This document shows positions 184 through 10,498 of a stretch of 10,660 bases of DNA, in pieces. Source of the DNA: a virus (lineage: Duplodnaviria; Heunggongvirae; Uroviricota; Caudoviricetes); the IMG/VR virus record IMGVR_UViG_2695420540_000012, one strand, 5' to 3'. The translations under genes and the position numbers were made by a program. A model generated the notes under the pieces. The model searched no databases, was not told the DNA's origin, and saw only the letters and a list, made by a program, of their open reading frames with translations. Every line of letters begins with the position of its first letter. Position 1 is the first letter of the stretch.

Positions 184-1266
184 TCATTTTCTCTGGCTGA
201 TCTTTACCGGATAACCATCCCGAAGATCAATTAAGTGCTCCGGTTCAGAAGCAAACCATGCATAAGATCCCCACGCCAATTCTGGTATTGCCTTTTTAAA
301 AGGCAGAGCACTTCTGTCCATAAATGCCGTAAGGAATGCAAGATTTTTCTCGCTGAACCCAGCGTCAATAGCCAAATGAGTGAGAGTAACTTTTCGTTCC
401 CTGTTTATAGGCCCATCTGTCGCAACTACTTCAGTGAAAACTACAAGCATGTCCGAACCCGTTCGGTCCTCTCCCAAATCAATCAAAATAATATCTGGAA
501 GTGCTTTTGAGGCATCAATATTCAGCCCCAATGCTTTTGCCAATACATCATCCTGAGCAACAACTTTATTCCCGGATTCAGACAACCAGAGCACAGTTGG
601 ATTCTTAAGAAAATTAGGAGCAAAAACTTCGATGACGGCCTTAGCTATTGTACTTGACGGGCCCGGAGCTAAAGTTCTCTTCTCTCCATTTGGGAAAGTG
701 ACGACTACGGCATCAGCAGCAATCACTGCCCCTGATTTCAATAAACGCAACCTAGCAAGAGCGGCTTTGTTCAAATGATTTTCTTGCCAGGAACTTATTG
801 CACTCAGCAGCGAATCTCCTTCAAGCCCGGCATCAAAGAGTGCTGCAAAAGAGCGATTCAAACTGTAACGAGGACGAGAGGATGTGGTGGGTATACCTTT
901 ACGCTCAACAATTGCATTGCAAGGTATTAGGCCATTTTTTATAGTTTCATCACGTATTGGCTCACGCGTATTTTCCGCATACCATGCATCAGCAGGCCTT
1001 ATCTTTTGTTTAGAGAAAGTCATCTTTACCCAGCTTTCTCTGGACGCATCATCAGTAAGAGCAGCCTGCGAATCTCCCATACTTACAACCTGGCTGGGCC
1101 TTATCCATCGCCCCAGCCCCTCAACCGCACCAGCATAAAACATGACAAAAATTGTTTTTGCAGCTATTTCCCGAATTAAATATCCACGATTCTCAGTCCC
1201 TTCAGGGAAAATTAATTGTAATCTTTCCCGGATAACATTCAATGGGGGAACAACAGGCAGATTCAT
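184..1266 (-). CDS. Putative Type II restriction endonuclease (360 aa), partner of the upstream methyltransferase; possibly BsuBI/PstI-like
   Basis: Its ATG overlaps the methyltransferase stop in an ATGA overlap at 1263-1266, the classic coupled M then R arrangement. Contains a PD...EVV segment (ALPDIILIDLG...MLVVFTEVVATDG) reminiscent of a PD-(D/E)xK core, but the canonical lysine is not where expected. Family assignment is recollection, not a search. Confidence 0.5.
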   Translation of the reverse strand: MNLPVVPPLNVIRERLQLIFPEGTENRGYLIREIAAKTIFVMFYAGAVEGLGRWIRPSQVVSMGDSQAALTDDASRESWVKMTFSKQKIRPADAWYAENTREPIRDETIKNGLIPCNAIVERKGIPTTSSRPRYSLNRSFAALFDAGLEGDSLLSAISSWQENHLNKAALARLRLLKSGAVIAADAVVVTFPNGEKRTLAPGPSSTIAKAVIEVFAPNFLKNPTVLWLSESGNKVVAQDDVLAKALGLNIDASKALPDIILIDLGEDRTGSDMLVVFTEVVATDGPINRERKVTLTHLAIDAGFSEKNLAFLTAFMDRSALPFKKAIPELAWGSYAWFASEPEHLIDLRDGYPVKISQRK

Positions 1267-3095
1267 GCAATCATCACTCCATAGAAACCAGCGATAGTTC
1301 TCTCAATAATCCGTCTGTGGACGCCAGCATCAATTAACGATTGAATCTCCATCACCTGCTCCAGAGAAGGCAACGGGATTGAATTCAATTCATAGGCCGA
1401 AACAGCAACACTTCCGCTTATACACCTGAACGCCCGATCGACAACATGCGAATTAAGTAGCATATCAATAACATCAGGGCGAACCGCAGAGAACAATCCG
1501 TTTGAATATACAATATTAATATGGTTTTCAACTACTACGCCACCAGTTTCATCTATAAATCCCTGAGGTAAAATTGCCGCTAAAATCCTTCTGTCCTGTT
1601 CCTTCGATGTTGTCCGCTGAACAAGCACACATTCAGATTTTGTCACAAGGAAACCCTGTTGTGGGGTTATATCGATATAGGGAACATGATTTTTTCTGTC
1701 TGCACTAAAACGAAAACCAGCTGAAGTTATTGATTCCGCCCAGACTAATGGGTAGCTATTTTTTCCTTTCGTCGTACGCAACTGCGACTTAAATCGATTC
1801 CAGACTAACTGACCTGTAGAGACTGAGTATCCCAGATCAGCTAAACGCGTAGACATCTGTTTTAATACATTAAGAAAACAGGCATCATCTTTAACGCGTG
1901 GCAAAAGCCACGTTGCTCCACCTTTTTCTATATCAACATTACCTATTTTCTCAATTTTTGCTTTGTTCAACCCCTTAGGGACAAGTGAGGATACCTGGGC
2001 CCGAACTTTATGTTCTCCCGCCTTGAATGCTGTCAACATTGTTTCCTGGAGAACATCGTCAAAGACCCCATCCCTGTCAGTGACGAAATCAAGGGCATAC
2101 GGAGTAGTTTTTTCGGTCAAAAGGGTTCGCAGCGCGGTGAAATACTGCCCACCAAGAAAAGAAGTTGGCGTAAGAAATGCAATAACTCCTGTTTTCTCTT
2201 TAACCATGCGAACAGCTAAGTCGGTGAACAATCCATATAGATTTGCATGACCAAATAACGAACGAGAATATTTTTCTCTCGTTTTAATATCGAGAGTGAC
2301 ACGTCCGTAAGGCGGATTCCCTACCACAAGATCATAACCAGAAAATTTATCTTGCTGAAGCGCATCAGCAACAATAATTGTATCTTCAGGCAATCTACGT
2401 TTTACCTTTACACATAGTGGCATTAGTACAGATTCGAGCAATACCAAACTCATCCAAGCCGCAAATGGATCGATTTCTATCCCCTTTAAACGACGACTGA
2501 TTCTCCTCAACATCCATTCAGGGGAAGACCCCTTGTCTTTTTTTAACATTCGAATGGCTACTGGTGCCAAAAATGCACCGCCACCACACGCAGGATCAAT
2601 AACCGATGCATGAGAAAAATCAACACCAGACTTTTCAGCCAGGTCCAAGAGACGCGCTACCAAAGGTGGGGGGGTATAGTAAGCCCCCAATTCCGAACGG
2701 TAAGCGGATGGCAGCATTACCGTATAAATTGACCCAATCAGATATCCAGCGTCCTCCGCCGGAAATTGAGCAATAAGCTCACCTGTTCGTTCAGCGAGCT
2801 CGCGTGCATCACATGGAATGTCTTCTATGTAAACAGTGTGCGGTACTGCCCTCATTTTAATGCTGCTTTTTTGCTTTTTTGCAAGGGTATCCCAATATGC
2901 AGCTACGATGCTGAAGCAGTATGAGCGGGCATGCATCAACCTTGACTGCCCGGTTTTGTAATTGCCCGCATAACCTTTGGCCATGGCTTTACAAGTTTGA
3001 TATCTTTCCAGATTAGAAAACTCATTATCTGTAAAAAAATCAAAATGTTGCACATTCATAATGTAAAATCCTAATGTATCAAACATGCGGGCCAT
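1263..3095 (-). CDS. N6-adenine DNA methyltransferase, gamma-class, Eco57I/N6_Mtase-like (610 aa)
   Basis: Motif X-like GAYYTPPPLV, motif I VIDPACGGGAFL, motif IV VVGNPPYG in gamma-class order, followed by about 340 aa of probable target-recognition domain. Start is ambiguous: ATG at 3095 has no Shine-Dalgarno, and in-frame ATGs lie at about 3083 and 3059. Confidence 0.85.
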   Translation of the reverse strand: MARMFDTLGFYIMNVQHFDFFTDNEFSNLERYQTCKAMAKGYAGNYKTGQSRLMHARSYCFSIVAAYWDTLAKKQKSSIKMRAVPHTVYIEDIPCDARELAERTGELIAQFPAEDAGYLIGSIYTVMLPSAYRSELGAYYTPPPLVARLLDLAEKSGVDFSHASVIDPACGGGAFLAPVAIRMLKKDKGSSPEWMLRRISRRLKGIEIDPFAAWMSLVLLESVLMPLCVKVKRRLPEDTIIVADALQQDKFSGYDLVVGNPPYGRVTLDIKTREKYSRSLFGHANLYGLFTDLAVRMVKEKTGVIAFLTPTSFLGGQYFTALRTLLTEKTTPYALDFVTDRDGVFDDVLQETMLTAFKAGEHKVRAQVSSLVPKGLNKAKIEKIGNVDIEKGGATWLLPRVKDDACFLNVLKQMSTRLADLGYSVSTGQLVWNRFKSQLRTTKGKNSYPLVWAESITSAGFRFSADRKNHVPYIDITPQQGFLVTKSECVLVQRTTSKEQDRRILAAILPQGFIDETGGVVVENHINIVYSNGLFSAVRPDVIDMLLNSHVVDRAFRCISGSVAVSAYELNSIPLPSLEQVMEIQSLIDAGVHRRIIERTIAGFYGVMIA

Positions 3096-3766: not shown

Positions 3767-3790
3767 NNNNNNNNNGGTAATGACTCCAAC

Positions 3791-4294
3791 TTATTGATAG
3801 TGTTTTATGTTCAGATAATGCCCGATGACTTTGTCATGCAGCTCCACCGATTTTGAGAACGACAGCGACTTCCGTCCCAGCCGTGCCAGGTGCTGCCTCA
3901 GATTCAGGTTATGCCGCTCAATTCGCTGCGTATATCGCTTGCTGATTACGTGCAGCTTTCCCTTCAGGCGGGATTCATACAGCGGCCAGCCATCCGTCAT
4001 CCATATCACCACGTCAAAGGGTGACAGCAGGCTCATAAGACGCCCCAGCGTCGCCATAGTGCGTTCACCGAATACGTGCGCAACAACCGTCTTCCGGAGA
4101 CTGTCATACGCGTAAAACAGCCAGCGCTGGCGCGATTTAGCCCCGACATAGCCCCACTGTTCGTCCATTTCCGCGCAGACGATGACGTCACTGCCCGGCT
4201 GTATGCGCGAGGTTACCGACTGCGGCCTGAGTTTTTTAAGTGACGTAAAATCGTGTTGAGGCCAACGCCCATAATGCGTGCAGTTGCCCGGCAT
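3791..4294 (-). CDS. insB: IS1 InsB frame (expressed as InsAB' transposase by -1 frameshift)
   Basis: 167-aa frame (...[42 protein letters not shown]...) overlapping the insA 3' end at the A6C site. Confidence 0.9.
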
Positions 4295-4488
4295 CCAACG
4301 CCATTCATGGCCATATCAATGATTTTCTGGTGCGTACCGGGTTGAGAAGCGGTGTAAGTGAACTGCAGTTGCCATGTTTTACGGCAGTGAGAGCAGAGAT
4401 AGCGCTGATGTCCGGCAGTGCTTTTGCCGTTACGCACCACCCCGTCAGTAGCTGAACAGGAGGGACAGCTGATAGAAACAGAAGCCAC
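4213..4488 (-). CDS. insA: IS1 InsA (transposition inhibitor, N-terminal part of the InsAB' transposase)
   Basis: 91 aa beginning [24 protein letters not shown], the canonical InsA zinc-finger/HTH protein, with a GTG start. Confidence 0.95.
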
Positions 4489-4615
4489 TGGAGCACCTCA
4501 AAAACACCATCATACACTAAATCAGTAAGTTGGCAGCATCACCACAGTGCTGAACTTAATTATTCAGATTTTGGATTATGCTTTCTCTTCACGAAGTTCC
4601 GATTGTTAATTTGGC

Positions 4616-5146
4616 TCACAACAGCACCTTCTGAAAATTACCCTGATAGAAAGCCAGTACACGCTGCATAGCTTCGCTCTTCCGGCACTCGCTACAGATT
4701 ATGTTTTGACGCCTGTCGTAGCGGCGTATTTCTCCGTCTGGTAATGACCAGATAAGGTCCGGATCAACCACAGATGGTTTCTTCAGCTTTGCCCTCGAGA
4801 GTTTTTTGCGGGCGTTTTGCCAGTCCTTACGAGCCTGTTCAGACGGGAATAACCCGTANNNNNNNNNNNNNNNNNNNNNNNNNNNNNNNNNNNNNNNNNN
4901 NNNNNNNNNNNNNNNNNNNNNNNNNNNNNNNNNNNNNNNNNNNNNNNNNNNNNNNNNNNNNNNNNNNCCAGAGTTGTATACATCGCCACTGGCAACCAGC
5001 TCTCTGGCGAGAACACTCATCAGATATCTTGTCGCACCTGTCTTGGCTTCCAGTTGCCGCAACGTCTCGCGACCGCTCAGACGTACAAGTTCAACAACCT
5101 GCCCCTTAATTTTTTCCCGCTCTTCCTGTGTAAATACTTTTGCCAT
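4616..5146 (-). CDS. Hypothetical prophage protein, middle masked by Ns (4859-4967)
   Basis: Frame is maintained across the N run. N-terminus MAKVFTQEEREKIKGQVVELVRLSGRETLRQLEAKTGATRYLMSVLARELV is helix-turn-helix-like; C-terminus contains CSECRKSE. Starts 15 nt after the stop of the upstream gene. Confidence 0.5.
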   Translation of the reverse strand: MAKVFTQEEREKIKGQVVELVRLSGRETLRQLEAKTGATRYLMSVLARELVASGDVYNSXXXXXXXXXXXXXXXXXXXXXXXXXXXXXXXXXXXXXYGLFPSEQARKDWQNARKKLSRAKLKKPSVVDPDLIWSLPDGEIRRYDRRQNIICSECRKSEAMQRVLAFYQGNFQKVLL

Positions 5147-5908: not shown

Positions 5909-6300
5909 TTACTTCACAACTCCCGGAAAGCTGACATTTGAACGCCAGCTATCCCAGTTAAACGTCACCCACCGACAACCGTTCATGGTCATGCGGTCCA
6001 TAATCCTCTCACCAAGAAGCGTGCTCATTGCGGCATGATTCAGGTTTGTTAACATCCCGACACTGCACAGTGATGCTGTCCGGCGATCAATTATCTGGTG
6101 CAATACCACCTGCTCGTTTTTCGTCTCCCGCTGAATGCCTATTTCATCCAGGACCAGCAAATCAACCCCGCAAAGCTCCTGTAAAAATTTTTCACCGGAT
6201 TTGCCGTTGTCGTAGCTGTCATGCAACACGCTCATGACATCAGACTCGGTGACGATAATCACGCTGCGCCCCTTCGCCATCAGCCGGTTACCCATCGCCG
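5909..6300 (-). CDS. DnaC-like helicase loader (IstB-like AAA+), C-terminal part only; N-terminal part hidden in Ns
   Basis: KGRSVIIVTESDVMS...LLVLDEIGIQRETKNEQVVLHQIIDRRTASLCSVGMLTNLNHAAMSTLLGERIMDRMTMNGCRWVTFNWDSWRS aligns closely with the E. coli DnaC / Rac YdaV C-terminal half as remembered, including Walker B (DEIG). Walker A would lie in the masked region. Confidence 0.85.
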
Positions 6301-6777
6301 NNNNNNNNNNNNNNNNNNNNNNNNNNNNNNNNNNNNNNNNNNNNNNNNNNNNNNNNNNNNNNNNNNNNNNNNNNNNNNNNNNNNNNNNNNNNNNNNNNNN
6401 NNNNNNNNNNNNNNNNNNNNNNNNNNNNNNNNNNNNNNNNNNNNNNNNNNNNNNNNNNNNNNNNNNNNNNNNNNNNNNNNNNNNNNNNNNNNNNNNNNNN
6501 NNNNNNNNNNNNNNNNNNNNNNNNNNNNNNNNNNNNNNNNNNNNNNNNNNNNNNNNNNNNNNNNNNNNNNNNNNNNNNNNNNNNNNNNNNNNNNNNNNNN
6601 NNNNNNNNNNNNNNNNNNNNNNNNNNNNNNNNNNNNNNNNNNNTCCACCGNNNNNNNNNNNNNNNNNNNNNNNNNNNNNNNNNNNNNNNNNNNNNNNNNN
6701 NNNNNNNNNNNNNNNNNNNNNNNNNNNNNNNNNNNNNNNNNNNNNNNNNNNNNNNNNNNNNNNNNNNNNNNNNNNNN

Positions 6778-7817
6778 TCGGTATCCGGTTCAGAAATATG
6801 ATTCACACAACGCTGGTTGTTCGTGCCGCTTACCGGGAGCAACCAGGGGTTTTCAAAATTCCGGTCCGGCCCAAAAAACGTCGTCGCTCGCTGAACAAAT
6901 TCCGTTCCCGCTTTCCCGGTCGCCGCCAGGTATCTCGCGTAACGCCTCACACCATCCAGCATGGTCTCTGGTGGCACCCCCTCGCGCAATCTGGCCTTCC
7001 AGGCACTGAATGCGGATTTCTTCGGGTTTGCCCCGGCACGCAACGGGTATTCCCGCCAGACCTGTTCGAACACATCCGGATAATCCACTCGTCCCACAGG
7101 CTGCCCGGTGTTTTCCGGGGCTACCCGATCGGCTTCCCGCTGAATGGCGGAATCGGCTTCAGGCTGCTGCAGTTGGAGTGATTGCTCCGGCCTTGCGGTC
7201 ATCACCTGCTGCACAGCGCCCGAATCGGCTTTCAGCGCATACGCTGAATCGGCTTCCGGTGTCGAGCCTGCTGGCTGACCAGGATTGACGGTCTGAACAT
7301 CCCCTGCCTGGTTCGTGGCGTTTTTTACGCCATGGACCATAGTGTTTTGATCTTCTTTATCTGTATCTTTATCTGTATCTGTCGTGACTCGTCGTGACAT
7401 GTGCGTGACATTTCGTGACGCGCCGTGACAATCGCCATTTTGTTCCCGCTTTCTTTCCCTCTCTCGCTGCGCCCTCTTGCGCTCTGCAGGAGATTTTGCG
7501 GTTTGCGAAATATTGCCGTTGTCCTCTTTAAGCACCTGGCGTTTTTCCCATCCAGTGATTAAATCACCATCAAGTACCCGCCCCTGCATCGTCTGCAAAA
7601 TTGAATCAATTACCTCTTCTGTCACGTCGAGCGCACTTGCCAAATCTTCTGTCGTGACATCAATGTGACCTCGCGTGACATTTCGTGACGCGCTCACCAG
7701 GAGGTGGATATACACTGCCATCACTGTTGCAATTGGCTGCCCTGACACCCTGGCAATTGTTCGCCACTTAGGGTCATTTGGCATGTCATGCCATAATCTG
7801 AGCCAGGCGTTAGCCAT
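6778..7817 (-). CDS. Putative phage replication initiator / replisome organiser (O-like), 3' end hidden in Ns
   Basis: Shine-Dalgarno GAGGTGA 4 nt upstream of the ATG at 7815-7817. Lies directly upstream of the DnaC-like gene and contains two iteron clusters, as lambda O contains ori. The six-frame track runs this frame through the N block to 6288, but the true stop is not visible. Confidence 0.6.
7356..7379. repeat. Tandem 12-bp direct repeat (tttatctgtatc x2) next to iteron cluster A
   Basis: Exact tandem duplication at 7356-7367 and 7368-7379, followed immediately by the first CGTGAC iteron. Confidence 0.7.
7383..7429. repeat. Iteron cluster A: five CGTGAC copies at 10-11 bp phasing (candidate ori)
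   Basis: CGTGAC at 7383, 7393, 7404, 7414 and 7424. Includes the first copy of a 21-bp exact direct repeat GCGTGACATTTCGTGACGCGC (7403-7423). Confidence 0.65.
7653..7693. repeat. Iteron cluster B: four (C/T)GTGAC copies at 10-11 bp phasing (candidate ori)
   Basis: CGTGAC/TGTGAC at 7653, 7664, 7674 and 7684, plus an inverted GTCACG at 7621. Includes the second copy of the 21-bp repeat (7673-7693). Confidence 0.65.
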
Positions 7818-7888: not shown

Positions 7889-8314
7889 TCAATGTACTGC
7901 CACAGCATTTCCTGCCGGGCCACCACGGTTCATCTGATTGAAACCGGCGATTGCCACTGCGACAAAATCATCAGCGTCTCTCACCAGTCGTTCATGCGTC
8001 TCCACCAGTTCCCGAAAATAAGCTGAACTGTGGCTGCGCATTCGAGCCACCAGCGGAGGTGGCATTGCCCTTTCGATCGCAGGTAACAACGCCTGAATTT
8101 TTTCAACAGCGTCAGGGGTGTCTTTATCCAGCCAACGGAAAATCTTTTGGGTGTTGAGATAAAGCGTGTTGTGCTTGCTGTCGTTATGCAGAACCGGAAA
8201 CGTCATTCCCAGTTCGAAATAAACCCTGGTTATTTCAGCTGCCGGAACTTTTTCACCGTCCGGATGCGCCCAGGCTTTCATCGCCATGCGGATGTGTTCA
8301 TGCTTGATTTTCAT
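7889..8314 (-). CDS. CII-like / YdaT-family prophage regulator (141 aa)
   Basis: N-terminus MKIKHEHI matches what I recall of Rac YdaT. Its ATG overlaps the stop of the upstream Cro-like gene in an ATGA overlap at 8311-8314, and it sits between the Cro-like and initiator genes as in Rac (ydaS-ydaT-ydaU-ydaV). Confidence 0.55.
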   Translation of the reverse strand: MKIKHEHIRMAMKAWAHPDGEKVPAAEITRVYFELGMTFPVLHNDSKHNTLYLNTQKIFRWLDKDTPDAVEKIQALLPAIERAMPPPLVARMRSHSSAYFRELVETHERLVRDADDFVAVAIAGFNQMNRGGPAGNAVAVH

Positions 8315-8574
8315 GAATCAACCCCCGCCGATGGTTGTGTGTTAGCCTGAAACTCAGCAGGCAAGCCGTCAGTTGGGTTGGGGTAGGTTTTACTGTCAAT
8401 CTCATGTGGGGTCACCACCCATCCCGTTGCTTCACACCAACGTAATATTTTTTCTCCTGTAAGTTTTGCACGCCCCGTTATAACGTGGCTGACCATCCCT
8501 TGGGATGCGCCAACAATCTCAGCAAATGAACTCTGGGTTATATGAAAATGATGCAAATATTCTCCAAGATTCAT
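8311..8574 (-). CDS. Cro-like HTH regulator (YdaS/Cro family), 87 aa from the ATG at 8572-8574
   Basis: Helix-turn-helix ITQSSFAEIVGASQGMVSHVITGRAKLTGEKI. Transcribed divergently from the repressor across the operator region. The track's longer ORF begins at a TTG (8601); the ATG has a GGGCGG purine patch upstream. Confidence 0.7.
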   Translation of the reverse strand: MNLGEYLHHFHITQSSFAEIVGASQGMVSHVITGRAKLTGEKILRWCEATGWVVTPHEIDSKTYPNPTDGLPAEFQANTQPSAGVDS

Positions 8575-8610
8575 AATCCGCCCTATGTGATGTGTTACCA
8601 ATGCATAATT

Positions 8611-8650
8611 AATAGCACTGTTATTTTTAAAAGTAAATAGTGATGCTATT
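8611..8650. promoter_or_regulatory. OR-like operator pair with divergent promoters
   Basis: Two 15-bp imperfect palindromes, AATAGCACTGTTATT (8611-8625) and AATAGTGATGCTATT (8636-8650), consensus AATAGC-N3-GCTATT. On the minus strand TTTACT (-35-like) and TATTAAT (-10-like) overlap them. Confidence 0.6.
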
Positions 8651-8685
8651 TCAAAGTGATTAGCAATCTTATTAGAATTGGATGT

Positions 8686-9186
8686 ATGAAAAGAAAATCA
8701 TTGTCAGACACCGACCTCAACGCCGCCAGAAGACTGAAAGAAATCTGGATGGCAAAGAAATCTCAGTTGGGATTGACTCAGGAACGTGCGGCGGAAATTA
8801 TGGGGTTTTCAACACAAGGGGCGGTAAGTCACTACCTAAATGGTCAAACCCCACTAAACCTTGAGGCTGTTCTAAAGTTTGCTGGCTTACTGAAAGTTCC
8901 CCCTGAGTCAATCAGGCCAGACATGGTAGATTTGCTGCAAATTGCAAGGATGTATTGTCGAGAACCACAGCAAGATAACATAGTCGCATTACCAGCAGAC
9001 ACAGAACAAACAGAGGATGAACTACCGTTTGCCGTAGAGCCGATGGAACGAGATTTAATCCATACGTTCAGAGCTTTTCCGAAAGAAGATCAAGAACACA
9101 TGCTTCAGGAGATGAAAGATAAAAAAGAATCAATGGATCGTACGGTTGCGCGGTGGTTAGCTGCACAAAAAGGCCGTCGCGCCTAA
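8686..9186 (+). CDS. Prophage repressor, XRE/CI-type HTH (RacR/CI analogue); start could instead be GTG at 8656
   Basis: Helix-turn-helix LGLTQERAAEIMGFSTQGAVSHYLNGQ. Sits divergent to the Cro-like gene. No LexA/S24-type G-x-S-M ... K peptidase motif is visible in the C-terminal half. Confidence 0.7.
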   Translation: MKRKSLSDTDLNAARRLKEIWMAKKSQLGLTQERAAEIMGFSTQGAVSHYLNGQTPLNLEAVLKFAGLLKVPPESIRPDMVDLLQIARMYCREPQQDNIVALPADTEQTEDELPFAVEPMERDLIHTFRAFPKEDQEHMLQEMKDKKESMDRTVARWLAAQKGRRA

Positions 9187-9205
9187 ATCAGAGGAGATAT
9201 GTAAA

Positions 9206-9400
9206 ATGAGTACAGTCCTTTCCCCAATGGTTTCAGAATTTGAGACAGTTGAGCAAGAAAATAGTTACAACGAATGGCTGCGGGCCAAAGTAGCAGCAAG
9301 CCTCGCGGATCCCCGCCCGGCGATTCCGCATGATGAGGTAATGGCGGAAATGGAACAAATTATTGCCCAAATTGCTGCTGCAACTCACAGAGGTGAATAA
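9206..9400 (+). CDS. Putative type II antitoxin (ParD-type partner of the ParE/RelE toxin), 64 aa
   Basis: Shine-Dalgarno GAGGAG 9 nt upstream. Small acidic protein whose TAA stop overlaps the toxin ATG (TAATG at 9398-9402). Family assignment is by context and general resemblance only. Confidence 0.55.
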   Translation: MSTVLSPMVSEFETVEQENSYNEWLRAKVAASLADPRPAIPHDEVMAEMEQIIAQIAAATHRGE

Positions 9401-9690
9401 TGTTACCCGTTTTATGGCTACCATCTGCTCGTGATGATTTGCGCCAGATCGTAGCCTACATAGCTAAAGAAAATCCCGCGGCAGCACGCAGAATGAAAAT
9501 TCGAATTGAAACATCCGTTTTGCCGCTCACAGAGCATCCTTACCTGTATCCTCCAAGCGAGCGAGTTCTTGGTCTTCGTGAAATTGTAACTCATCCTAAC
9601 TACATCATCCTTTACCGAGTAACAGCATCAAGCATAGAAGTAGTAAATATTGTGCATTCTCGAAGACAGTATCCAGGCAAAAACAGTTAA
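9400..9690 (+). CDS. ParE/RelE-family type II toxin (96 aa)
   Basis: Family-typical pattern: N-terminal DDLRQIVAYIAKENPAAARRM and C-terminal LREIVTHPNYIILYRVTASSIEVVNIVHSRRQY. Translationally coupled to the upstream antitoxin. Confidence 0.75.
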   Translation: MLPVLWLPSARDDLRQIVAYIAKENPAAARRMKIRIETSVLPLTEHPYLYPPSERVLGLREIVTHPNYIILYRVTASSIEVVNIVHSRRQYPGKNS

Positions 9691-9706
9691 TTATTCCCGC
9701 CGACAG

Positions 9707-9728
9707 AACCACCTTAGGGTGGTTTTTT
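9707..9728 (+). terminator. Rho-independent terminator after the repressor/antitoxin/toxin genes
   Basis: Stem AACCACC / GGTGGTT with loop TTAG, followed by a six-T run. Confidence 0.6.
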
Positions 9729-9746
9729 CTTGCCCCAACAAAAAAC

Positions 9747-9787
9747 AATAGCGATGCTATTTACATCAAAAAAATAATGATGCTATT
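9747..9787. promoter_or_regulatory. OL-like operator pair with a rightward promoter
   Basis: AATAGCGATGCTATT (9747-9761, perfect 6-3-6 palindrome) and AATAATGATGCTATT (9773-9787), same consensus as the 8611-8650 pair. TTTACA (9760-9765) and TATTGT (9784-9789) with an 18-bp spacer overlap them. Confidence 0.55.
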
Positions 9788-9968
9788 GTTTCAGGCGTCA
9801 ACCCACCCCGCCCCACAGAATGCAGGGCAATACTTCGAGTTACCAGACAGTGGTCAGGGGTTAAGTAGCCAGCCCGAGGCGTAAGAACATGACGGCAGGG
9901 TTCAATCTTTAACTATGCAGCAGGTTTTTTGTTCCGCCACCCCGGCGTTAAGGGGAAATGAGGTCAGC

Positions 9969-10121
9969 ATGGATACTATCGATCTTGGCAACAACGAATC
10001 TCTGGTGTGCGGCGTGTTCCCTAACCAGGATGGAACGTTTACCGCCATGACGTATACCAAAAGCAAAACGTTTAAAACCGAATCTGGCGCGCGTTGCTGG
10101 TTAGCCAGAAACACTGACTGA
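9969..10121 (+). CDS. Small prophage early protein (50 aa), Rac YdaG/YdaF-like
   Basis: GAGG 7 nt upstream of the ATG. MDTIDLGNNESLVCGVFPNQDGTFTAMTYTKSKTFK resembles what I recall of the small Rac proteins next to racR. Confidence 0.5.
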   Translation: MDTIDLGNNESLVCGVFPNQDGTFTAMTYTKSKTFKTESGARCWLARNTD

Positions 10122-10132
10122 TGAGGCTGACG

Positions 10133-10498
10133 ATGGAATTTAAAGATTTACCGTCTGATGTACAGAAAACAGCAGCTCATACATTGCATTCTGTGCTGCG
10201 AGAAATCGGGAAAGATATTGCAAGCGAGCCAGCAAAAGATCTGGCCCGGAAAATCAAGACCGCTTTCGTTGAGCTTTATAATGTTGGCACTGACTCTGAA
10301 ACTGTCGAGACCAAGACCGTAAGTTCACCAATATTCTCACTTGAGCCAAGCGTATTATCAGGTGAAATATGCACCGAGATTTCCAGCGAACTGCTTCCGG
10401 TAATACGAGAAGCAATTCGCCGTCGCGGTTTGGATGGAAGTTATGATCATGACGTTCTGCAAGTTCTCAGGACAATGGTGACTTCACTGGGGATTTGA
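10133..10498 (+). CDS. Hypothetical prophage protein (121 aa from MEFKDL)
   Basis: GAGG 7 nt upstream of the ATG at 10133. Acidic, no recognisable motifs. An alternative ATG at 10121 overlaps the upstream stop. Confidence 0.45.
   Translation: MEFKDLPSDVQKTAAHTLHSVLREIGKDIASEPAKDLARKIKTAFVELYNVGTDSETVETKTVSSPIFSLEPSVLSGEICTEISSELLPVIREAIRRRGLDGSYDHDVLQVLRTMVTSLGI

Follow-up and report, generated by a model that had tools for sequence, protein, structure and literature searches.

A probable paaR-paaA-parE-type toxin–antitoxin operon headed by a lambda CI-like repressor gene in the immunity region of a Rac/Qin/CP-933P-type prophage

INTRODUCTION

The paaR-paaA-parE genes of prophage CP-933P have been described as a three-component toxin–antitoxin (TA) system (Hallez et al., 2010, as reported in PMC8630535 and PMC4803016), and the present analysis concerns a relative of that system. 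It is encoded at 8686-9733 of a 10,660-nucleotide (nt) stretch of Caudoviricetes DNA (IMG/VR record IMGVR_UViG_2695420540_000012), the whole of which is called the window here, and consists of a repressor gene, an antitoxin gene and a toxin gene. A previous reading of the letters and open reading frames (ORFs) of this DNA, made before any database search and called here the sequence-only reading, had drawn attention to the trio. The locus is very probably a three-component TA system of the paaR-paaA-parE type, and the module, its place, its regulation and its addiction have already been published for Escherichia coli O157:H7. What the window adds to the paaR-paaA-parE family is a third predicted class of DNA-binding regulator, with candidate operators of its own.

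The best described member of the family is that of CP-933P, for which Jurenas et al. (2021) assigned PaaR2 as the analogue of CI, YdaS as that of Cro and YdaT as that of CII (PMC8630535). The paaR2-paaA2-parE2 genes form an operon, and YdaT activates the promoter PRE (PMC8630535; PMC4803016). Both PaaR2 and YdaS leave footprints on the 97-bp intergenic region that constitutes OR, and both repress PL933P, a PL-like promoter with OL operators that lies beyond the operon (PMC8630535). Leaderless mRNA has been documented for paaR2 as well as for cI (PMC8630535). Full repression of the homologous operon requires PaaR, and the PaaA–ParE complex represses it partially (PMC4803016). PaaA is without a DNA-binding domain; PaaA2 is degraded by ClpXP/ClpAP, while ParE2 sits on the nucleoid and induces the SOS response (PMC8630535). 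The CP-933P locus is bistable, its TA genes are transcribed in the lysogenic state, and it stabilises a mini-F plasmid, which is the only phenotype demonstrated for the homologue (PMC8630535). The authors proposed that the TA genes were inserted into the immunity region (PMC8630535), and the analogy of the CP-933P locus to rexAB has likewise been published (PMC9986795; PMC8630535).

RESULTS

Three co-oriented genes with the order and spacing of the O157:H7 loci

The window was compared with the prophage of E. coli RMDEC465 (L001, 96-98% identical), a relative with 78-82% DNA identity (L006), two loci of E. coli O157:H7 (L004 and L005), Escherichia phage Evi (L007; LR597642) and loci of E. coli 99-3311 (L009) and E. 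coli CAU16175 (L010). L005 contains the exact ParE2 sequence deposited in PDB and a regulator starting with MQKKE, as published for PaaR2. L004 is inferred to be PaaR1-PaaA1-ParE1 of prophage CP-933M, because it is the non-ParE2 copy in an O157:H7 strain; its record carries no such label.

The repressor gene is separated from the antitoxin gene by 19 nt (9187-9205), within which an AGGAG ribosome-binding site is located 9 nt 5′ of the antitoxin start, and the last base of the antitoxin stop is also the first base of the toxin start (TAATG at 9398-9402). Neither a promoter nor a terminator was found in the repressor–antitoxin interval by consensus scans or by reading of the sequence. The antitoxin and toxin ORFs are full length and have good ribosome-binding sites. 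The sequence-only reading had reported the co-oriented trio, the 19-bp gap and the 1-nt overlap, and every one of its coordinates was correct. Order and spacing of the three genes are equal to those of L004 and L005, and the synteny with these two loci extends to the neighbours: ydaT, ydaS, regulator, antitoxin and toxin, followed by DUF1391/ydfC/dicB. In comparisons with L006 and L004, at a synonymous divergence (dS) above 1.2, the ratio of nonsynonymous to synonymous substitution (dN/dS) was 0.05-0.09 in all three genes, with values up to 0.14 for the antitoxin and of about 0.05-0.06 for the toxin. The repressor, antitoxin and toxin genes are all under strong purifying selection.

The pair consists of a ParE-family toxin and a PaaA-family antitoxin

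The 96-aa product of the third gene, which had been proposed to be a RelE/ParE toxin, matched the Pfam model ParE_toxin with 64.1 bits (cutoff 23) at an E value of 1.8e-17, and the proposal thus holds. Its best solved relative was ParE2 of E. coli O157:H7 (PDB 5CW7; E 6.7e-37). All strong PDB matches were ParE proteins, as were the weaker matches 6X0A, 5CEG and 3KXE. The toxin was 82-86% identical to the L004 toxin (79/92 residues) and 65-67% identical to ParE2 of L005 (62/92 residues). The score against the NCBIfam model RelE_StbE was marginal (29.3 bits against a cutoff of 27.9), and BLASTP gave no alignment with K-12 RelE at E <= 100. These matches place the predicted toxin in the RelE/ParE superfamily.

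For the 64-aa product of the second gene, the sequence-only reading was right about the antitoxin function but not about the family, which it had given as ParD/ribbon-helix-helix (RHH). The protein matched the Pfam model PaaA2 with 81.9 bits (cutoff 27; E 3e-23), the solved PaaA2 (PDB 3ZBE/5CW7) at 1.4e-23 and the NCBIfam model NF050103 (‘RelB family antitoxin’) at 3.3e-27. It was 77-78% identical to the L004 antitoxin, and 66% identical to PaaA2 overall or 75% over the aligned 56 residues. A PaaA-family antitoxin and a ParE-family toxin close to ParE1/ParE2 are the pair known from the paaR-paaA-parE system.

Two other families were considered for the pair. No ParD, RHH or other DNA-binding model matched the 64-aa protein at E <= 0.1 in Pfam or NCBIfam, and a ParD/RHH antitoxin was rejected accordingly. 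BLASTP gave no alignment of the antitoxin with K-12 RelB at E <= 100, and the absence of similarity to both K-12 RelE and K-12 RelB led us to reject a RelBE reading, despite the name ‘relB’ given by PGAP. At L001 the RefSeq/PGAP labels of the three genes are helix-turn-helix (HTH) protein, ‘RelB family antitoxin’ and ‘RelE/ParE family toxin’. The name ‘relB’, which reached 9206-9400 from PGAP via NF050103, is misleading, as the protein is of the PaaA2 family.

The first gene encodes a predicted chimeric repressor

The 166-aa repressor matched the Pfam family HTH_3 (8e-09) and HTH_31 besides, with no other Pfam family. Residues 2-81 aligned with the N-terminal domain of lambda CI (E 2.9e-09), and residues 106-162 matched the C-terminus of the NCBIfam DicA model (7e-08). 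The protein thus begins with an HTH domain like that of lambda CI and ends in a domain of the PaaR/DicA type, the two being joined by an acidic linker. The last 46 aa were 70% identical to the L004 regulator and 50% identical to PaaR2, and identity over the remainder was at most 22%. Local alignment likewise confined the homology with PaaR to the C-terminal 44-64 residues (52-56% identity). Relative to PaaR1 and PaaR2, the predicted repressor is a chimera.

Among the loci fetched, three classes of N-terminal domain stand beside the same block of C-terminal domain plus TA pair. The lambda-CI-like class is found in the window and L006, the PaaR2 class in L005 and phage Evi, and the PaaR1 class in L004, L008 and L010. 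L009 has a subtype of the PaaR1 class at 60% identity.

No S24 (LexA-like) autopeptidase domain was detected in the 166-aa protein by the Pfam scan. A repressor of the lambda CI type, cleavable in the SOS response, was rejected, since the C-terminal domain is of the DicA/PaaR type and not S24.

Candidate operators and promoters flank the operon

A search of the window with AATAGYGATGCTATT, allowing up to three mismatches, returned seven matches where 0.59 were expected, and none of 200 shuffles reached seven. Six of the seven fall on four sites, of which two were counted once per strand, in the two intergenic regions that flank the operon. The placement of the block between OR-like and OL-like operators, as made in the sequence-only reading, is borne out by this enrichment and by the flanking positions. 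The candidate operators are 15-bp palindromes of the form AATAG-N5-CTATT. In L006 the arms AATAG and CTATT are kept and the five central bases are changed, the pattern expected of a palindrome bound by a dimer. A weaker third OR-like site has two mismatches to this form; such matches are common (four expected by chance), and this site is weak on its own. The start-to-start spacing of the OR-like sites, 25 and 23 bp, resembles that of lambda OR1-3.

Three predicted promoters are associated with these sites. Each hexamer of the PR-like promoter, -35 and -10, overlaps one operator, and the layout is mirrored by the PL-like promoter, which shares bases with each of the OL sites and is directed into ydfA. 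The -10 element of the PRM-like promoter ends 7 nt 5′ of the repressor ATG and no Shine-Dalgarno sequence precedes position 8686, suggesting that the repressor mRNA is probably leaderless, as is that of the homologue.

The sequence-only reading had also assigned a single terminator after the toxin gene, and RNA folding agreed, giving a hairpin followed by a U-run at 9705-9733. The 9-bp hairpin (9705-9713/9718-9726) had a free energy of -15.1 kcal/mol (z -3.1), and two of 200 shuffles folded as well. The terminator stem is kept in L006 with a changed loop, and L004 has, in the same place, a hairpin of different stem sequence (CCCTC-TTTC-GAGGG) followed by a T-run.

The TA pair travels with the C-terminal domain of the repressor

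In K-12, racR of Rac is followed by ydaG/ydaF and dicA of Qin by ydfA, with a TA pair in neither prophage; the Rac gene order thus agrees with the statement of the sequence-only reading that no pair lies between racR and ydaG. The unrelated stretch between the Rac-like flanks measures 1462 bp in the window and about 1045 bp in Rac, so that the pair is additional in comparison with Rac. Whether it was gained or lost does not follow from these lengths, because the entire cassette, repressor included, differs from that of Rac. DNA homology to the O157:H7 loci starts within the repressor coding sequence, near 9059 in the comparison with L004 and near 9121 in that with L005, implying that the TA pair travels with the C-terminal domain of the repressor.

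Among 5426 complete E. coli genomes, 842 carried the paaA-parE block and 72 the window-type N-terminal domain of the repressor; 72 genomes also covered at least 80% of a query that included the TA pair. As both counts are 72, no TA-less version of the window-type repressor was found in these genomes at blastn sensitivity. The description of the pair as inserted cargo is therefore sustained in one respect, the pair being extra relative to Rac, and only partly shown as regards insertion, given that the pair travels with the C-terminal domain and is carried by all 72 genomes with this repressor type.

The exact proteins were each found on at least 1000 contigs, which among the matches listed were named mostly Shigella sonnei. 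The contig names and an IS1 element in the window suggest that the DNA is of S. sonnei origin, and the host is most likely S. sonnei or a close E. coli relative. In the sequenced-phage collection the sole match was Escherichia phage Evi, with a PaaR2-type module; the allele of the window was absent from that collection. Phage Evi encodes a PaaR2-type regulator, PaaA2 and an intact but unannotated ParE2 ORF at about 3780-4058. In L009 (1249-2156), the PaaR1-like N-terminal subtype (60%) is paired with an antitoxin and a toxin of the PaaA2/ParE2 type (94% and 91%, respectively). This combination indicates that regulator and TA alleles recombine and that the region is mosaic, as expected for lambdoid immunity regions.

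Neighbouring genes and other features of the window

The context of the operon is that of a lambdoid immunity region: YdaS and YdaT homologues are encoded on the other strand, the YdaT site is matched perfectly and a DUF1391 gene lies downstream (Table 1). YdaT matched PDB 3C4R at 3.9e-79 and 8BT1, the YdaT of CP-933P, at 3e-70. The start of ydaS was set at the ATG at 8574, following the RefSeq annotation of L001, and the mechanical ORF reaches a TTG at 8601. The Cro function has been demonstrated for the YdaS homologue of CP-933P (PMC8630535). The putative YdaT operator at 8304-8321 fits TTGATT-N6-AATCAA without a mismatch, as no other place in the window does, and is conserved in K-12 Rac, where the surrounding stretch (window 8291-8320) is 96.7% conserved. 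The same motif at the same position has been footprinted for the YdaT of CP-933P (PMC9986795). By analogy, this site is the expected place of a PRE-like promoter that would read towards the repressor–TA operon. At the other end, the immunity cassette has its outer limit at the DUF1391 gene, whose DNA is 88-90% identical to Rac ydaF and Qin ydfA.

Table 1. Positions of the operon and of the elements around it in the window
Feature	Position	Strand	Sequence or elements	Basis and remarks
paaR-like repressor gene	8686-9186	+	166 aa	ORF list
paaA-type antitoxin gene	9206-9400	+	64 aa	ORF list
parE-type toxin gene	9400-9690	+	96 aa	ORF list
OR-like site 1	8611-8625		AATAGCACTGTTATT	Palindrome search; position kept in L001 and L006
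OR-like site 2	8636-8650		AATAGTGATGCTATT	Abuts -35 of the PRM-like promoter; L006 has AATAGCATCGCTATT, arms equal, centre changed
OR-like site 3, weak	8659-8673		ATTAGCAATCTTATT	Two mismatches to AATAG-N5-CTATT; within the PRM-like spacer and -10
OL-like site 1	9747-9761		AATAGCGATGCTATT	Palindrome search; L006 has AATAGCATTACTATT
OL-like site 2	9773-9787		AATAATGATGCTATT	Palindrome search; L006 has AATAGCAGTGCTATT
PR-like promoter for ydaS-ydaT	8637-8609	-	-35 TTTACT (8637..8632), 17 nt, -10 TATTAA (8614..8609)	Read from the sequence; predicted
PRM-like promoter	8650-8678	+	TTCAAA, 17 nt, TAGAAT	Consensus scan; predicted
PL-like promoter	9760-9789	+	TTTACA, 18 nt, TATTGT	Consensus scan; predicted
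Terminator-like hairpin and U-run	9705-9733	+	AGAACCACC-UUAG-GGUGGUUUU	RNA fold
ydaT, CII analogue	7889-8314	-		Pfam YdaT_toxin 5.1e-09; PHROG 163 ‘CII-like transcriptional activator’ 3e-40
ydaS, Cro analogue	8311-8574	-	87 aa	Pfam HTH_3; PHROG 35 transcriptional repressor 8e-17
Putative YdaT operator (OM-like)	8304-8321		TTGATTTTCATGAATCAA	Across the ydaS stop and ydaT start
ydfA/ydaF-type DUF1391 gene	9969-10121	+		Pfam DUF1391 3.3e-28; first gene of the PL-like operon

About 160 nt of non-coding leader sequence (9799-9958) lie 3′ of the PL-like promoter. Identity of the leader is 93% to CP-933P and to phage Evi and 85% to Rac, although the immunity cassettes next to it are unrelated. The segment 9790-9960 folded no better than shuffles (z +0.8), and a search of the whole window against Rfam gave no family above threshold; a nut-like site in the leader is possible. 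After ydfA, a 125-aa ORF (10121-10498, plus strand; PHROG 33007, 4.9e-80) takes the place that ydfB and ydfC have in L001 and Qin, and homology of the window with L001 stops at 10112. L001 has in addition a separate, canonical ParD/ParE pair at 4258-4820, near RusA and antiterminator genes, in a segment that is absent from the window.

On the minus strand the prophage also carries a BsuBI/PstI-type restriction endonuclease gene (184-1266) and an Eco57I/N6-adenine methylase gene (1263-3095), and an IS1 with insA and insB (3791-4488) lies beside them. The restriction–methylase pair would be a second lysogen-borne defence cargo. Masked runs of N at about 4800-4960 and 6300-6800 break the ORFs of a 181-aa protein, a DnaC/IstB-like ATPase and a replication-initiator homologue.

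DISCUSSION

The DNA compared here shows which genes are present and in what order, that they are under purifying selection, that the palindromes are repeated and conserved, and where the hairpin, the YdaT site and the boundaries of the mosaic lie. On this evidence and that from the homologues, 8686-9733 is very probably a paaR-paaA-parE-type TA operon that forms the lysogenic (PRM) unit of a lambdoid immunity region of the Rac/Qin/CP-933P type and addicts the host. Co-transcription, operator binding, the leaderless start, toxicity, protease lability and addiction are carried over to this locus from the homologues.

The operon may work as follows. The CI-like repressor encoded by the first gene would bind the AATAG-N5-CTATT palindromes on both sides of the operon, and in doing so would shut off the PR-like promoter of ydaS and ydaT and the PL-like promoter of ydfA and the genes downstream. 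The site that abuts the -35 element of the PRM-like promoter, together with the weak third site, could let the repressor first activate and later repress its own gene. During lysogeny the operon would thus be kept on by its own product, and PaaA and ParE would be made together, their genes being translationally coupled on the same transcript, which would end at the hairpin at 9705-9733. PaaA would neutralise ParE solely by wrapping around the toxin, as in the 5CW7 complex. ParE2 of the homologue presumably poisons a topoisomerase, as its nucleoid location and its induction of the SOS response suggest. If the cassette were lost or replaced, synthesis of PaaA would stop, stable ParE would be freed and the cell would be killed or arrested. 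The outcome would be a host addicted to the immunity region of its prophage, and by analogy with the homologue, addiction to or stabilisation of the immunity region is the most likely role of the pair.

Several observations weigh against this interpretation of the operon. The -10 element of the PR-like promoter (TATTAA) is poor and was not called by the consensus scan, which overall performed at chance (four sites against 3.3 expected), so that the promoters were assigned from where they stand with respect to the operators and from analogy. A simple terminator scan did not flag the hairpin at 9705-9733. The repressor's DNA-binding domain has no relation to its PaaR1 and PaaR2 counterparts (at most 22% identity), and hence operator binding and autoregulation are proposed from the repeat statistics and analogy. 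In CP-933P itself, ParE2 activity went undetected in both transcriptional states, and the authors leave the role of the system open (PMC8630535). Finally, L010 (1227-1721) retains, behind a PaaR1-type regulator, no more than the initial 66 nt of paaA, to which the DUF1391 gene is joined directly. This genome lost the pair but kept the regulator, implying that addiction is not absolute.

The explanation that survives best besides addiction is that the pair serves mainly in abortive infection or phage exclusion, as a lysogen-expressed counterpart of rexAB. Infection by another phage would reduce PaaA or set ParE free, halting the cell before any phage is released; such a function could coexist with addiction. 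Several type II TA systems defend against phage. The position of the pair fits, since it lies 3′ of the repressor gene in the PRM transcript, between OR and OL, as rexAB does (PMC9986795), and so does the lysogenic transcription of the TA genes of CP-933P. PADLOC, however, returned no match for the repressor, antitoxin or toxin at E <= 0.01, and the papers cited here on the CP-933P homologue report no defence phenotype, only post-segregational killing having been demonstrated. As the main function of the pair, we consider phage defence unlikely.

It is highly improbable that the locus holds an ordinary two-component ParDE or RelBE system, autoregulated by its antitoxin and merely adjacent to a repressor gene. 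This would agree with the PGAP labels, with the RelE_StbE score just over its cutoff and with the partial repression reported for the PaaA–ParE complex (PMC4803016). The antitoxin, however, matched PaaA2-type models only, without an RHH, ParD or RelB DNA-binding domain, and the BLASTP comparisons with K-12 RelB and RelE were blank. The 19 nt to the repressor gene hold no promoter or terminator. Moreover, the C-terminal domain of the regulator and the TA genes are inherited as a block beside three unrelated DNA-binding domains, and the homologue needs PaaR for full repression (PMC4803016). The least probable explanation of all, a decaying and non-functional remnant in a cryptic prophage, could draw on the nearby disruption by IS1, the deleted copy in one E. 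coli genome (L010) and the lack of toxin activity at steady state in CP-933P, but is contradicted by the intact ORFs and their ribosome-binding sites, by the low dN/dS at dS > 1.2, by the occurrence of identical proteins on at least 1000 contigs and by the toxicity and plasmid stabilisation of the homologue (PMC8630535).

The C-terminal domain of the regulator and paaA-parE form a single co-inherited cassette, which stands beside no fewer than three unrelated DNA-binding domains, each with matching candidate operators to either side. With addiction retained as the preferred role, this mosaic structure invites a further idea, which we put forward with considerable doubt. Either the PaaR-type C-terminal domain would be functionally coupled to the TA pair, for example by sensing or buffering PaaA:ParE, or addiction would make each swap of immunity keep the cassette. 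If such addiction-forced retention were true, the TA pair would shape how new immunity specificities arise in these prophages. The module is a fixed part of a very common prophage, probably one of S. sonnei. It therefore offers a natural comparison of how repressor specificity swaps while the TA pair stays, and of whether such pairs shield immunity regions from recombinational replacement.

Comparison with known systems

The toxin of the window shares its RelE/ParE superfamily with canonical ParD-ParE (RK2, Caulobacter, Vibrio) and RelB-RelE. It differs from these systems in its partner and control, as the PaaA antitoxin is not an RHH, ParD or RelB protein and does not bind DNA, and regulation is by a separate protein (PMC8630535).

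The K-12 prophages Rac and Qin share the frame of the region. DNA identity to Rac is 85-97% over the ydaS/ydaT junction (window 8291-8320) and over the PL leader with ydaF (9783-10114), and the C-terminus of Qin DicA is distantly related to the C-terminal domain of the window repressor. However, neither prophage has a TA pair before its DUF1391 gene, and RacR is unrelated in sequence to the window repressor.

The resemblance to lambda cI-rexA-rexB lies in the plan: the repressor gene comes first, accessory genes that the lysogen expresses come next and a terminator closes the unit, all between OR/PRM and OL/PL. The N-terminal domain of the repressor is homologous to that of CI, the OR sites are similarly spaced, and the PRM-like promoter starts at the border of the 8636-8650 operator, which is the arrangement that lets CI activate PRM from OR2. 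In contrast to lambda, the accessory genes are those of ParE and PaaA and not RexAB, and the repressor has a short PaaR/DicA-type C-terminus in place of an S24 domain.

The L004 locus has the same gene order, spacing, neighbours (ydaT and ydaS; ydfA, ydfB and dicB) and position of the terminator hairpin. The N-terminal part of its regulator is only 20% identical, however, the protein has 133 aa compared with 166 aa here, and the OR and OL sequences differ. The paaR2-paaA2-parE2 system of CP-933P/Sp12 (PDB 5CW7, 3ZBE and 7NKV) likewise shares the architecture and the logic of the immunity region, has the YdaT site TTGATT-N6-AATCAA at the ydaS/ydaT junction and is 93% identical in the PL leader. 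The differences lie in the regulator and its sites. PaaR2 has 123 aa and is said to lack similarity to CI, whereas the N-terminus of the window repressor matches lambda CI, and the operators of CP-933P are 18-bp repeats with the half-site GTTTAGTAA, whereas those of the window are the 15-bp palindromes AATAG-N5-CTATT.

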